Positions 10,804-16,986 of a stretch of DNA of 32,000 nucleotides are shown here, piece after piece (within the stretch, counting starts at the first letter, position 1; each line of letters starts with the position of its first letter). Both the position numbers and the translations under genes were made by a program. The DNA is from Pontiellaceae bacterium (GTDB lineage Bacteria > Verrucomicrobiota > Kiritimatiellia > Kiritimatiellales > Tichowtungiaceae), in the NCBI GenBank assembly GCA_044346945.1, contig JBIIYG010000017.1:483-32482 (forward strand), given 5' to 3'. The notes under the pieces were generated by a model, which worked only from the letters and a program-made list of their open reading frames with translations, ran no database searches and was not told the origin of the DNA.

Positions 10804-10827
10804 ACGGTTGCTTTCCGGAGTAATTTG

Positions 10828-10853
10828 TCTATTTTGCAATTTATGCAAATAGA
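10828..10853. promoter_or_regulatory. Candidate ArsR operator: imperfect inverted repeat TCTATTTTGCA-n5-TGCAAATAGA
   Basis: The inverted repeat was read directly and overlaps the probable arsR start codon (10843). ArsR/SmtB repressors typically bind AT-rich dyads at their own promoters. Confidence 0.45.
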
Positions 10854-11160
10854 TGAACTTCAGAAACTCGACCTCCGCCGCCAGACCCAAGTGGTTAAAG
10901 CGCTGGCGCATCCGTCCCGTCTGCTCATCGTTCACGCGCTGATGGATCACGAACTCTGCGTCTGCGAACTGCGCGACCTGCTCGCTCAGGACATTTCCAC
11001 GGTGTCGCGCCACCTCTCCGTTCTGAAAAACGCCGGATTGCTGATGGAAGACAAACGCGGGCTGTATGTTTATTACCGGCTCACCTGCCCTTGCATTAAG
11101 GGCTTCCTGAACTGCGTTGATAAAATGGTCTGCGAGGCCGGAAACGGATCGAAAGTGTAA
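10843..11160 (+). CDS. arsR: ArsR/SmtB-family metalloregulator with an ELCVCEL metal(loid)-binding motif
   Basis: ALAHPSRLLIVHAL..HELCVCEL...ISTVSRHLSVLKNAGLL matches the ArsR wHTH with the CVC As(III) site. A further C-terminal Cys pair (CPC) is present. Alternative TTG start at 10825. Confidence 0.88.
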   Translation: MQIDELQKLDLRRQTQVVKALAHPSRLLIVHALMDHELCVCELRDLLAQDISTVSRHLSVLKNAGLLMEDKRGLYVYYRLTCPCIKGFLNCVDKMVCEAGNGSKV

Positions 11161-11164
11161 CCAC

Positions 11165-11380
11165 ATGGAAGAAACAGCCAGAGAACTTGCGGCCATTGCC
11201 GCCGCCGTAGCCGGAAAGTGCCAGCCGTGCTTTGCCTATCACATTAAACAGGCCCGTGCGCTTGGCATACCGGAAGAATATATCCGTGAAATAATCCAGC
11301 TGGCAAAAGACATTCGGGCTTCCGGAGATAAGCACATCGATCAATTCGCTGAAAATCACACGGTGGATAAAACGGCATGA
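11165..11380 (+). CDS. Small AhpD/carboxymuconolactone-decarboxylase-like CxxC protein
   Basis: GKCQPCFAYHIKQARALG matches the CMD/AhpD CxxC...H motif. The gene starts 4 nt after the arsR stop. The track start at 11117 overlaps arsR. Confidence 0.65.
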   Translation: MEETARELAAIAAAVAGKCQPCFAYHIKQARALGIPEEYIREIIQLAKDIRASGDKHIDQFAENHTVDKTA

Positions 11381-11601
11381 AACGGGCGCTGATCAATCCG
11401 GCTCTTTGCACAGGATGCGAAAACTGCGCCGTCGCGGCAGTTTGTGAACGTAAAGCCATTCTGCGCGAAACCGTTCAGGACAAGCCGTGGATCGATTTTT
11501 ATCAATGCAGTGGATGCATGAAATGCAAGACAGCCTGCCCCCACAATTCCGTGGAGGCATTACTCCAACCCTGCACCGGTACGCGCCGGATGAGCTGGTG
11601 A
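11377..11601 (+). CDS. Small 2x[4Fe-4S] ferredoxin-domain protein
   Basis: CTGCENCAVAAVC and CSGCMKCKTACP cluster motifs. ATGA overlap with the upstream gene. Confidence 0.7.
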   Translation: MKRALINPALCTGCENCAVAAVCERKAILRETVQDKPWIDFYQCSGCMKCKTACPHNSVEALLQPCTGTRRMSW

Positions 11602-11607
11602 TTAACC

Positions 11608-14000: not shown

Positions 14001-14005
14001 AAGTC

Positions 14006-14449
14006 ATGAGTATGAAAAAAATTAAAATCCTGTTTCTGTGCACCGGCAACTCCTGCCGAAGTCAAATGGCCGAAGGCTGGGCGCGGGCTCTCAAGGGCGA
14101 TGTGATCGAAGCCTATTCGGCGGGCATCGAAACCCATGGGCTCAACCCGAACGCCGTCAAAGTAATGGCTGAGGCGGGCGTGGATATTTCCGGACACAAA
14201 TCGGAAAACGTCGCCGACCTGCTCCATATTCCGTTCGACGTGGTCATCACCGTCTGCGGTCACGCCCATGAGCACTGCCCGGTCTTCCCCGGCAAAGCCA
14301 AAGTGATCCATGCCGGATTCGACGATCCGCCGAAGCTTGCCGCGCAGGTGACCGGCGAAGAGGCAAAACTCGACTGCTACCGCCGTGTGCGCGATGAAAT
14401 CAAAACCTTCATTGAAACCCTTCCGAAAGGACTGAATCATGGGAAATAG
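14006..14449 (+). CDS. arsC: Arsenate reductase, LMW-PTPase/thioredoxin-coupled type
   Basis: [19 protein letters not shown]-loop (CX5R) plus the distal Cys pair in CGHAHEHCP. Confidence 0.92.
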
Positions 14450-15617
14450 TGATGACCGGAAACTGACAAATGTATTCGAACGCTATCTGACCGTTTGGGT
14501 CGCGCTGTGCATTGCCGGCGGAATCCTGCTCGGCAAGGTCGCGCCGGAATTCGCCAAAACACTGGACGGCATGGCCATCACCGTCAGCGGCGCCCCGGTG
14601 GTTTCCATCCCGATTGCCGTCTGCCTTTTTTTCATGATGTATCCGATCATGGTGAAAATTGATTTCGCCTCAGTCGTTCAGGCCGGAAAAAGCGGCAAGC
14701 CGGTCTGGCTGACGCTGTTTGTCAACTGGGCGATCAAACCGTTCACTATGTACGGCATCGCCCTGCTCTTTCTTGGCGTTCTTTTTCGCGGTTTTATCGG
14801 AACCGAGGCGATGGATCTGGTCAAAATGCCGTTCGGACTCGACCTCCCGGTCGGTGCGATTCACGGCGCGGGAACCGTCGTTCTCAACGAAGGGGTCAAA
14901 ATGCTCCAGGTTCCGCTTTGGCGAAGCTACTTTGCCGGATGCATTCTGCTTGGAATCGCTCCGTGCACGGCGATGGTGCTGGTCTGGGGTTATCTGGCGC
15001 GCGGCAACGACGGTTTGACGCTGATCATGGTCGCGATTAACTCGCTGTCCATGCTGTTGCTGTACGGCGTCCTCGGCGGCTTTCTGCTGGGTGTTGGTAA
15101 ACTTCCAGTCCCGTGGCAGGCACTGTTGCTCTCGATCACCATCTACGTCGCCTTGCCGCTGGTTGCCGGATACTTTTCCAGAAAATGGATCATCCGGAGC
15201 AAAGGTGAAACATGGTTCAAAGAAAAATTCCTGCACTTCCTAACCCCGGTCACAATCATTGCCCTGCTGAGCACACTGGTTCTTCTGTTCAGCTTCAAAG
15301 GCGAAACGATCCTGAGCAATCCGCTGACGATTCTCTGGATCGCTGTGCCGCTCTTTCTCCAGACCATGCTGATCTTCTGGCTGGGTTACGGGTGGGCGAA
15401 GCTCCTTAAACTGCCTTACGCCGATGCCGCGCCCGCCGCGATGATCGGCGCATCGAATCACTTTGAAGTCGCCATCGCTACGGCGACCATGCTCTTCGGG
15501 ATATCCTCCGGCGCCGCGCTGGCCACAGTCGTCGGCGTACTCATTGAAGTGCCCGTTATGCTGTGGCTCGTCCGTATCTGCCTGCGCACACAGCACTGGT
15601 TTCAGAAAGAGAAATGA
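14439..15617 (+). CDS. acr3: Arsenite efflux transporter, ACR3 family
   Basis: [32 protein letters not shown] and [12 protein letters not shown] are ACR3 hallmarks. The gene overlaps arsC by 11 nt. Confidence 0.92.
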
Positions 15618-15655
15618 GCGGCTCGTTCTGAGCGTTCGCCGCAAGAAGGGAAAAA

Positions 15656-16708
15656 ATGACAACCTGCTGTTGCAAAAGTAAATGCTGTCCGCCGAAGAGG
15701 GAACTCTGGATGACCGGCGGGGTCGAAACGCCTGCCGGAAAAGTTCCAAAGGTTGGAACGCGGCTCGCGCTCCGCGATGAACTGGGCACGCTGAAAGTCC
15801 GCTTTGCAATCGGGCGCAACCGCTACGCCGTTCCGCCCGGACTGTACGCCGTCGGCAATCCATCGCCGGAATCACCGGTGTTCGTATCGGCGAATTATAA
15901 ACTTTCATTCGACCATCTGCGGCGCGCACTGCACGGCCTTGATGGCTGGATTCTGGTGCTCGACACGAAAGGTATCAATGTCTGGTGCGCGGCGGGCAAA
16001 GGCACGTTCGGAACCGAAGAACTTGTGAACCGGGTCGAAACTACGGAGCTTTGCCGGATGGTTTCACACAACAGACTGATTGTCCCTCAGCTCGGCGCGC
16101 CGGGCGTTGCGGCGCATGAAGTTCAAAAACAATGCGGGTTTCAAGTCGTGTACGGGCCGGTGCGGGCCGAGGATATTCCGCAATTCCTCGCGGCGAAATT
16201 TAAAACCACACCGGAGATGCGCCGTGTCCGGTTTACTCTGCGGGACAGGATCGCTGTGATTCCGGTCGAGCTGGTGATCTGGTTTAAGCAGGCGCTCGGG
16301 CTGGCGGTTCTGATCTCTCTGGCCGACGGTGTGTCCCGTACCGGATTCAGCCTCGCCGCCGCCCCGCGTACGTTCGGCCTCGTGTTTACCGGCTGGCTGA
16401 CCGGCGGAGCGCTGGTTCCGATTCTCCTGCCGTGGCTTCCGGGCCGCGCCTTCTCCATCAAAGGACTCTGTGCCGCATTAGTACTCTGGGGTTGTGTTTA
16501 CAGCTTACTCGACACTTCACCGCCAGAGGGAGCTGGATGGTTTCTTGTGCTGATCGCCATTGTTTCGTTTATGGCACTCAACTTCACCGGAACTTCCACC
16601 TACACCTCGATGTCGGGCGTGAAGAAAGAGATGAAAATCGCCGTTCCGCTCCAACTGCTGGCGTTGATTGCCGGATTCATCTTTATCGTGCTGGGAGGCC
16701 TGCGATGA
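15656..16708 (+). CDS. hgcA: Mercury-methylation corrinoid protein HgcA
   Basis: Cap-helix motif GINVWCAAGKGTF (Cys111, codon 15986-15988). Flanking conserved blocks are present: PGLYAVGNP, SPVFVSANYKLSFD, WILVLDTKG, PQLGAPGVAAHEV and VYGPVRAEDIPQF. A C-terminal multi-TM domain follows. GAAGGGA RBS. Confidence 0.9.
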   Translation: MTTCCCKSKCCPPKRELWMTGGVETPAGKVPKVGTRLALRDELGTLKVRFAIGRNRYAVPPGLYAVGNPSPESPVFVSANYKLSFDHLRRALHGLDGWILVLDTKGINVWCAAGKGTFGTEELVNRVETTELCRMVSHNRLIVPQLGAPGVAAHEVQKQCGFQVVYGPVRAEDIPQFLAAKFKTTPEMRRVRFTLRDRIAVIPVELVIWFKQALGLAVLISLADGVSRTGFSLAAAPRTFGLVFTGWLTGGALVPILLPWLPGRAFSIKGLCAALVLWGCVYSLLDTSPPEGAGWFLVLIAIVSFMALNFTGTSTYTSMSGVKKEMKIAVPLQLLALIAGFIFIVLGGLR

Positions 16709-16986
16709 AATATCTTAAAAATGTTGTTACGCTTAAACTGGATGAACAGAAATGCGTCGGTTGCGGACGCTGTCTGACGGTCTGCCCGCACGGGGTTTTT
16801 GAACTGTCCGGCGGAAAAGCCGCAGTCACCGACCGCGACGCCTGCATGGAGTGCGGAGCCTGCGCCAAAAACTGTCCAGTCGGCGCACTGTCCGTCAAAA
16901 CCGGTGTCGGCTGTGCCAGCGGCATCCTCGCCGGACTGCTGAACGGCGGCGAAGCCTGCTGTGATCAAGGCGGATGTTGCGGATAA
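16705..16986 (+). CDS. hgcB: HgcB, 2x[4Fe-4S] ferredoxin partner of HgcA
   Basis: CVGCGRCLTVCP and CMECGACAKNCP motifs, a conserved lone Cys (GVGCASG), and a C-terminal vicinal Cys tail (ACCDQGGCCG). ATGA overlap with the hgcA stop. The track start at 16432 lies inside hgcA and is rejected. Confidence 0.9.
   Translation: MKYLKNVVTLKLDEQKCVGCGRCLTVCPHGVFELSGGKAAVTDRDACMECGACAKNCPVGALSVKTGVGCASGILAGLLNGGEACCDQGGCCG

Follow-up and report, generated by a model that had tools for sequence, protein, structure and literature searches.

A likely composite arsenic-resistance operon ending in hgcAB in a Pontiellaceae bacterium

Gene content of the cluster and identity of hgcAB

We analyzed a 32,000-nt stretch of contig JBIIYG010000017.1 from a Pontiellaceae bacterium, referred to here as the window (32 kb), and focused on a cluster of arsenic-resistance (ars) and thiol-redox genes that ends in the mercury methylation genes hgcA and hgcB. 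The cluster comprises 11 consecutive genes on the + strand at positions 10843-16986: arsR, an ahpD-like gene, a ferredoxin gene, arsP, arsE, trx, ccdA, arsC, acr3, hgcA, and hgcB (Table 1). An earlier sequence-only reading had described them as one ArsR-headed operon. All 11 open reading frames (ORFs) and every junction value of that reading were reproduced from the sequence, and recalculation from arsR to hgcB gave +4, -4, +6, +16, -4, -4, +5, -11, +38, and -4 nt. Stop-start overlaps of the ATGA/GTGA type were found at four junctions (ahpD/ferredoxin, arsE/trx, trx/ccdA, and hgcA/hgcB). The gene identities assigned earlier were right, as judged by NCBIfam and Pfam profile scores and motifs; the earlier start coordinate, 10804, is the first base past the nth stop codon, whereas arsR begins at 10843. 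The cluster is likely an ArsR-controlled, composite operon for arsenic resistance from a member of the Kiritimatiellales, and its last two cistrons are a genuine hgcAB pair.

Table 1 Features of the ars-hgcAB cluster and its borders (window positions; bit scores are given with the model cut-off where available).
Feature	Position	Strand	Evidence and remarks
nth (endonuclease III)	10042..10803	+	TIGR01083 223 bits (cut-off 212); ends 39 nt before arsR
Hairpin CCGGAAA-N11-TTTCCGG	10794..10818	+	7-bp stem from inverted-repeat scan; spans nth stop codon
Candidate ArsR operator	10828..10853	+	Nested palindrome TCTATTT(T)GCA-ATTTA-TGCAAATAGA; overlaps -10-like TATTTT and arsR ATG
arsR, ArsR/SmtB repressor, 105 aa	10843..11160	+	NF033788 81.8 bits (55); PF01022 (winged-helix HTH_5) 48.9 bits
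AhpD/CMD-like small CxxC protein, 71 aa	11165..11380	+	PF02627 36.5 bits; TIGR00778; KCQPC
2x[4Fe-4S] ferredoxin, 74 aa	11377..11601	+	Fer4 family matches; homologues at the same position in L010 and L163
ArsP-type permease, 339 aa	11608..12627	+	PF03773 ArsP_1 252.7 bits; TPFCSCS motif
ArsE/MTH895-type thioredoxin-like protein, 76 aa	12644..12874	+	TIGR00412 106.1 bits (62); PF13192; CPKC
Membrane-anchored thioredoxin (trx), 144 aa	12871..13305	+	PF00085 49 bits; hydrophobic helix at residues 3-25, then CAGGVC and CSSC
CcdA/DsbD_TM thiol-disulfide transporter, 232 aa	13302..14000	+	PF02683; GTG start; 232-aa homologues up to 100% identity
arsC, thioredoxin-coupled arsenate reductase of the low-molecular-weight protein tyrosine phosphatase (LMW-PTP) type, 147 aa	14006..14449	+	TIGR02691 153.5 bits (174.3); PF01451
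acr3, arsenite efflux permease, 392 aa	14439..15617	+	TIGR00832 368.7 bits (282.8)
acr3-hgcA spacer	15618..15655	+	38 nt, largest gap of the cluster; purine-rich AAGAAGGG before ATG
hgcA, corrinoid protein, 350 aa	15656..16708	+	NF040863 430.1 bits (275)
hgcB, 2x[4Fe-4S] ferredoxin, 93 aa	16705..16986	+	NF040864 124.4 bits (99)
lptF/lptG-type permease	16992..18116	-	TIGR04407 191 bits, below cut-off 230; convergent, stop 5 nt from hgcB stop; 3' boundary

The hgcAB genes form a genuine pair and encode neither CFeSP nor a fused paralogue. We ran the check with HgcA-specific profiles that had been called for earlier: HgcA scored 430 bits with its own model, 206 bits with the HgcAB-like fusion model (cut-off 285), and 71 bits with the ACS gamma model (cut-off 306), and the HgcA alignment spanned model positions 1-321 of 325. 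A homologous corrinoid domain is shared with the CFeSP large subunit (AcsC/CdhE) of the Wood-Ljungdahl pathway (48 bits to 2h9a_A, residues 54-181), and a sequence search for a solved HgcA structure returned CFeSP only. Unlike CFeSP, HgcA has a C-terminal membrane domain, seen by hydropathy as about five hydrophobic segments in residues 199-350. The cap helix GINVWCAAGKGTF fits N(V/I)WCA(A/G)GK and carries the Co-ligating Cys; it aligns to SVLTAWAAGKF of CFeSP, in which a Thr occupies the position of this Cys. HgcB contains both CX2CX2CX3C motifs (CVGCGRCLTVCP and CMECGACAKNCP) and a double-CC tail, ACCDQGGCCG, and the 4-nt overlap joins its gene to hgcA. The three motifs named by the sequence-only reading (NVWCAAGKGTF, CMECGACAKNCP, and the C-terminal Cys tail) are thus all present in the sequence.

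Two start codons required a choice. For hgcA, a public gene call (P0001) begins 54 nt downstream of ATG 15656, at M19, which gives a protein of 332 aa and a gap of 92 nt after acr3. This shorter form was ruled out by N-terminal conservation. ATG 15656 is preferred because the N-terminal peptide M..CCCK..(CC)..KRE.W is kept in ~60 close homologues; in the window this Cys-rich peptide (CCC..CC) is MTTCCCKSKCCPPKRELW, encoded at 15656-15709 and absent from the public call. For ccdA, GTG 13302 (232 aa, junction of -4) was favored over ATG 13278 of one public gene call (28-nt overlap), because the Joint Genome Institute (JGI) call and ~120 homologues have 232 aa.

Many other HgcA lineages also have Cys-rich N-termini (CC or CxC), both with and without neighboring ars genes. 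An adaptation of ars-linked HgcAs in the form of the N-terminal Cys cluster was rejected, as linked and unlinked proteins did not differ in its frequency (9/12 vs 10/10, Fisher p = 0.76).

Conservation of the linkage and the acr3-hgcA junction

We gathered 80 hgcA loci of GTDB species representatives, 80 metagenome contigs, and four extra close relatives, and homologues of the window proteins were placed on them by tblastn. The closest HgcAs (70-82% identity) came from metagenome-assembled genomes (MAGs) of Kiritimatiellales or Pontiellaceae, and just two close relatives were contributed by the metagenome scan. In nine of the ten loci with HgcA at least 68% identical, ars genes adjoin hgcAB; for the tenth, just 26 nt of upstream sequence is available. 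Locus L163 has the order ArsR-ArsP-ArsE-Trx-CcdA-ArsC-Acr3-HgcA-HgcB, and L164 has ArsR-Trx-(PDDEXK_3)-CcdA-ArsC-Acr3-HgcA-HgcB; in both, the acr3 stop codon overlaps the hgcA start codon by 4 nt. The same 4-nt overlap joins arsC to hgcA in L004, and in L166 ArsP is located directly 5' of hgcA and Acr3 after hgcB. In the relatives overall, hgcA is preceded by 4-nt overlaps or by gaps of 6-33 nt. The operon-like packing claimed for the window is real and is strengthened by the relatives in which acr3 or arsC overlaps hgcA.

Several further genes were observed in these relatives. A gene of the PDDEXK_3 family, not found in the window, lies between trx and ccdA in L164 (5006-5755) and L166 (4898-5695). 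Directly 3' of hgcAB, on the opposite strand, L163 (9333-17044) and L164 (9408-13634) carry a cobW-type GTPase gene and corrinoid genes, which are either a CODH/ACS-CFeSP-RACo cluster or URO-D/S-methyltransferase corrinoid-methyltransferase genes. In these two loci hgcAB adjoins other corrinoid methyl-transfer machinery. An ORF of ~98-100 aa follows arsC in L010 (8378-8680, ArsC-like, 40% identity) and L165 (7671-7967, without a Pfam match); possible explanations are a truncated duplicate and a small accessory gene.

The upstream flank of the window, consisting of Fpg, diphosphomevalonate decarboxylase (MVD), and Nth, is shared by L165 and L166, indicating that the cluster was inherited at that site; the flanks of L004, L010, L163, and L164 differ from it. 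A mobile island was rejected, since GC content is flat across the cluster and the flank is shared, with no sign of recent transfer. A plasmid search with CcdA returned two matches only. A 388-aa ORF on the - strand (19450-20616) without a Pfam match lies in a low-GC stretch (49% vs ~56-58%), the only one in the window.

The synteny comparison proposed earlier was run over the 160 diverse loci. Of the GTDB loci, 30% have ArsC or Acr3 within 5 kb of hgcA on the same strand, as do 22% of those from metagenomes; when any ars gene was counted, the values were 38% and 30%. The density of ArsC/Acr3 homologues per 100 kb, counted in rings to 10 kb, was 15.4 within 1 kb of hgcAB and then 4.3, 0.7, 0.3 (5-7.5 kb), and 0. 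Density within 1 kb was thus ~50-fold higher than at 5-10 kb, which served as an internal control. Within 5 kb, all 60 ArsC/Acr3 matches shared the strand of hgcA, and the opposite strand had none. Bacteroidales locus L040 contains the gene set of the window in another order (ArsR-ArsE-Trx-CcdA-ArsP-ArsC-HgcA-HgcB-Acr3), and Bacteroidales L024 is likewise reordered. L048 and L077, from the Planctomycetes-Verrucomicrobia-Chlamydiae (PVC) group, have ArsR-ArsP-ArsE-Trx-CcdA, a second ArsR directly before HgcA-HgcB, and Acr3 downstream, followed in L048 by ArsC. A Bacillota locus (L026) has ArsD and ArsA in addition. The order ArsR-HgcAB-ArsC occurs in L064, from the isolate Acetivibrio mesophilus N2K1, and ArsR-HgcAB...ArsC-Acr3 in L033, a MAG placed in Victivallis vadensis. 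The linkage between ars genes and hgcAB is real, strand-specific, old, and not peculiar to the window.

One alternative is that hgcAB is transcribed alone, from a constitutive or separately regulated promoter within the 38-nt spacer or the acr3 3' end, the ars genes being mere neighbors. The spacer is the largest gap of the cluster. An arsR gene of its own directly precedes hgcAB in the PVC relatives L043, L048, and L077, so a promoter close to hgcAB does occur in the wider family; hgcA expression was, moreover, formerly regarded as constitutive (Peterson 2025). However, the closest relatives L163, L164, and L004 have hgcA overlapped by 4 nt, the strand bias is complete (60 vs 0), and a consensus scan of the + strand found no promoter-like site near 15,400-15,656. 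The same promoter/terminator scan matched none of the intergenic gaps in the cluster. The spacer folded no better than shuffles (z = 0.48); its 5-bp GCGGC/GCCGC stem was rejected as a hairpin or terminator, as its fold energy is ordinary and no U-tract follows. Transcription of hgcAB by itself is thus an unlikely explanation, and we favor a transcript that would extend from the ars genes into hgcB.

At the 3' end of the cluster, a terminator after hgcB was excluded; the fold is unremarkable (z = -1.19), and no space for a terminator is available because the convergent lptF stop codon is only 5 nt away. No riboswitch or other RNA element in the window matched Rfam at the gathering score, and no tRNA was found.

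We also compared the cluster with ars loci of cultured Kiritimatiellota that lack hgcAB at the locus and encode CcdA homologues with 75-80% identity (Pontiella sulfatireligans, strain S94, and Pontiellaceae B1224; the set labeled L167, L168, and L169). P. sulfatireligans has ArsR-ArsP-ArsE-...-Trx-CcdA-ArsR-Acr3-ArsC, S94 has ArsR-ArsP-ArsE-Trx-CcdA, and B1224 has Trx-CcdA beside ArsP, ArsR, Acr3, ArsD, and ArsA. The thiol-redox relay is therefore an ordinary part of ars superclusters in this phylum, and the view that a CcdA/thioredoxin relay is special to hgcAB does not hold. The ArsR-ArsP-ArsE-...-Trx-CcdA and ArsR-Acr3-ArsC modules are common to the cultured strains and the window; in the lineage of the window, the two ars modules are combined behind a single ArsR, with hgcAB joined on at the 3' end.

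ArsR and the upstream boundary

The window ArsR has Cys residues in ELCVCE of helix 3 and in a C-terminal CPC...C. C39 and C41, which form the CxC pair, are invariant in all aligned hgcA-linked ArsRs, and C85 and C92 are kept within the subtype of the window ArsR. This subtype, which also heads the ArsP-ArsE-Trx-CcdA modules of L077, L048, and L015, shares the helix-3 CxC and a C-terminal PC...F..C. The R773-type three-thiolate As(III) site reads ELCVCDLC. The corresponding ELCVCELR of the window contains two of the three Cys residues, and its ELCVC motif also occurs in the nearest solved relatives, the Cd sensors Lmo1102 (CadC-type) and CadC. It is therefore plausible, but no more than that, that the protein senses arsenite. 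Of the As(III)-type CVC site claimed earlier, the invariant CxC pair stands; its As(III) specificity is in doubt because the third Cys is missing and Cd sensors share the motif.

Instead of arsenite, ArsR might respond to Hg(II), Cd(II), Sb(III), persulfide/thiol stress, or some other cue, which would make the operon a unit for thiophilic stress in general. The incomplete site, the likeness to Cd sensors, the many thiol-redox proteins in the operon, and weak NCBIfam matches that include a BigR-type sulfite sensor and TsoR all point in this direction. Nevertheless, the window ArsR does not have the N-terminal Cys arm of CadC-type sensors, and arsC, acr3, arsP, and arsE are arsenic-specific by family. 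In Pseudodesulfovibrio mercurii ND132, moreover, hgcAB is repressed by ArsR2, is induced by arsenic, and responds to As(III) and As(V) (Gionfriddo 2022/2023); the sequence-only reading was right in naming an ArsR-like regulator next to hgcAB in this strain. We therefore regard a non-arsenite signal as improbable and retain ArsR as a putative arsenite-responsive repressor.

The region upstream of arsR contains a nested palindrome that overlaps a -10-like element and the arsR start codon (Table 1). Its core, TTTGCA-N5-TGCAAA, has one exact match in the 32 kb. When one mismatch was allowed, one more site was found, at 11405 inside the ferredoxin gene (0.11 matches expected by chance), and this site was treated as a chance match. 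L048, whose ArsR is of the same subtype, has TTGTTGCA-N6-TGCAACAA 40 nt before its start. From these sequences we infer that the palindrome is a candidate ArsR operator, and its position hints at a very short leader, or no leader at all, for arsR. Promoter-like hexamers precede arsR (-10-like TATTTT at 10830-10835 and -35-like TTGCTT at 10808-10813) and agree with 7 of 12 consensus positions.

The nth gene is probably an upstream neighbor on the same strand and not a member of the operon. If nth were read through into arsR, the transcription unit would begin further upstream and would not be strictly ArsR-headed. Such read-through is suggested by the shared strand, the distance of 39 nt, and the weak hexamers in the gap. 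Conversely, in L165 and L166, which have the same flank, nth and the cluster are separated by a 285-nt gap or by one extra gene. The hairpin over the stop codon of nth is a possible weak terminator or boundary element; its N11 loop is outside the reach of the terminator scan, which permits loops of 3-8 nt only. The unique palindrome at the arsR start is also what would be expected of an autoregulated promoter. Read-through from nth is accordingly given little weight. The description of the operon as ArsR-headed is plausible, although the closeness of nth on the same strand keeps it from being secure.

Predicted functions and relation to known systems

In the best-supported reading, in which a single transcript covers the cluster, the operon would also hold two small redox proteins, the AhpD-like protein and the ferredoxin. 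The best curated partial matches of the AhpD-like protein are AhpD domains fused to ArsM or to methyltransferase selenoproteins (NF041537 and NF045649), which suggests a recurring AhpD-methyltransferase partnership. ArsC of the pI258 family has a CX5R phosphatase loop and a downstream Cys pair for a disulfide cascade. The window ArsC shows both the loop (CTGNSCRS) and a second Cys pair (CGHAHEHC). ArsP reportedly carries a vicinal Cys-x-Cys motif. The ArsP-type permease of the window reached no NCBIfam equivalog, the best being SaoE (138 bits vs 325). The CcdA-like protein failed the ArsG equivalog NF040495 (49.3 bits vs 200), and CcdA/DsbD_TM is the better description. Compared with the ArsP methylarsenite efflux permease and ArsEFG (Chen 2015; Chen 2019), the window has in common an ArsP_1 permease with Cys-x-Cys, an ArsE-family protein, and a DsbD_TM-type protein, but ArsE alone reaches its curated cut-off.

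A Pst-type phosphate ABC transporter (a binding protein, two permeases, and two ATPase genes) and PhoU are encoded at 1258-6062, and ~5 kb separates them from the downstream ars operon. Phosphate transporters are a common entry route for arsenate, but the closeness of the two clusters is probably a coincidence.

Based on the anatomy of the cluster and its conservation in relatives, we propose the following model. ArsR, with its CxC thiolate site, would bind the palindrome over its own start codon and the -10-like element and would leave the DNA on binding a thiophilic metalloid, most plausibly As(III). A single transcript of ~6.1 kb would then run from arsR to hgcB, and ribosomes would be passed along through the 4-nt overlaps and short gaps. 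From what is known of the families, ArsC would reduce arsenate with thioredoxin, Acr3 would export arsenite, and CcdA would supply reducing equivalents to the membrane-anchored thioredoxin. Homology suggests that the ArsP-type permease and ArsE may handle trivalent or organo-arsenicals. HgcA and HgcB would form a corrinoid/ferredoxin methyl-transfer pair and would be expected to methylate Hg(II), as characterized members of the family do.

Co-transcription and arsenite control are well-supported inferences from the sequence. Several points weigh against the model, beginning with the missing third Cys of ArsR and its kinship with Cd sensors. The hexamers before arsR are weak and lie outside the matches reported by the scan, whose consensus may not fit Kiritimatiellota; read-through from nth, 39 nt upstream on the same strand, is possible, as is, from sequence alone, an internal promoter inside acr3. 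ArsC remains under the equivalog cut-off of TIGR02691, although this was its best-scoring family. Furthermore, deletion of hgcAB in ND132 raised As(V) sensitivity and left As(III) sensitivity unchanged (Gionfriddo 2022/2023).

The arsR-hgcA-hgcB genes of ND132 and other Desulfovibrionaceae (Goni-Urriza 2020; Gionfriddo 2022/2023) have in common with the window a same-strand upstream regulator of the ArsR/SmtB family. Co-transcription and arsenic-responsive expression were experimentally shown there. In ND132, the ArsR2 gene is immediately next to hgcA, the metal site of ArsR2 is atypical, and no other ars genes are described as co-located. In the window, by contrast, eight ars/redox genes separate arsR from hgcA over a distance of 4.5 kb; ArsR has a CxC site, and hgcA has no proximal regulator.

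The association of ars genes with hgcAB has been published, and the novelty claimed by the earlier reading falls. McDaniel (2020, Fig. 6) shows hgcAB flanked by acr3, arsC, arsM, and arsR in diverse MAGs, and Zhang (2023) reviews the co-localization. Peterson (2025) describes arsR-like elements with acr3/arsC near hgcA, most commonly in Kiritimatiellaeota-associated hgcA; in lake metatranscriptomes, the presence of arsR goes with lower hgcA/gyrB ratios, mainly for these hgcA genes. Gionfriddo (2022/2023) cites the co-localization, tests the arsenic link, and suggests that HgcAB may not have evolved for Hg methylation; a role of HgcAB in arsenic handling, close to the speculative possibility raised by the earlier reading, was already an explicit premise there. 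Since both the link and the hypothesis have been published, the locus is a clear example and not a discovery. The MAG neighborhoods (McDaniel 2020, Fig. 6; Zhang 2023; Peterson 2025, Fig. 4c) have an arsR-like gene and acr3/arsC by hgcA, as does the window, and the lineage is probably the same. They are described in terms of proximity, unlike the full unit and ArsP-ArsE-Trx-CcdA module of the window. The available portions of McDaniel (2020), Gionfriddo (2022/2023), Zhang (2023), and Peterson (2025) do not mention the full 11-gene unit or stop-start overlaps into hgcA, nor the cross-phylum ArsP-ArsE-Trx-CcdA set, versions without hgcAB, or a candidate operator. The 11-gene unit, overlaps, companion set, hgcAB-free versions, and candidate operator refine a known pattern and do not constitute a new kind of system.

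HgcAB may act on As(III) or another soft metalloid instead of or besides mercury. In such a scheme HgcAB would pass a methyl group held on the corrinoid to As(III), the product would exit via the ArsP-type permease, the CxxC proteins would recycle thiols, and HgcAB would replace ArsM; its native role would be corrinoid-dependent, ArsM-independent alkylation for ArsP-type export, with mercury methylation as a side reaction. None of the 11 operon proteins has an S-adenosylmethionine (SAM)-methyltransferase domain, so that the earlier claim of no arsM is correct for the operon, and the cluster does encode an ArsP-type permease with a CSC motif. The resemblance of the AhpD-like protein to domains fused to ArsM, the recurrence of the linkage in several phyla, and the greater As(V) sensitivity of the ND132 deletion mutant, together with altered methylation rates of ND132 under arsenic (Gionfriddo 2022/2023), also fit this scheme. 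However, the window covers 32 kb, and arsM may be located elsewhere in the genome; arsM adjoins hgcAB in other genomes (McDaniel 2020), counter to a simple substitution of ArsM, and ArsP/ArsE modules occur in cultured relatives without hgcAB. Divergence of the active site was rejected as well: the same cap helix was found in 53 of 58 ars-linked and 97 of 106 unlinked HgcAs, in a sample biased by the use of DTKGINVW among the search patterns, and there is therefore no active-site sign of re-specialization. Other native roles proposed for HgcAB are the production of antimicrobial methylmercury and halomethane dehalogenation. We regard a native metalloid role, whether as substitute for or companion of mercury methylation, as very unlikely, and predicted Hg(II) methylation by an HgcAB pair within an arsenic-resistance operon remains the preferred reading. 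If a metalloid role were nevertheless true, the same-strand embedding of hgcAB in ars operons of Kiritimatiellales, other PVC, Bacteroidales, and Bacillota would be a genomic trace of native function.

With the link and the hypothesis already in the literature, what the present analysis adds is a well-defined operon model, quantified synteny, and a candidate operator. Through the stop-start overlaps of acr3 or arsC into hgcA, the locus and its relatives tie hgcAB to arsenic detoxification more closely than any physical linkage so far. The control of hgcAB expression sets the amount of methylmercury produced in the environment. Our model predicts that hgcAB expression, and so methylmercury potential, would be repressed by ArsR and induced by arsenic in this lineage. 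Kiritimatiellales are abundant hgcA carriers in lakes, and their methylation capacity there is predicted to be gated by arsenic exposure.

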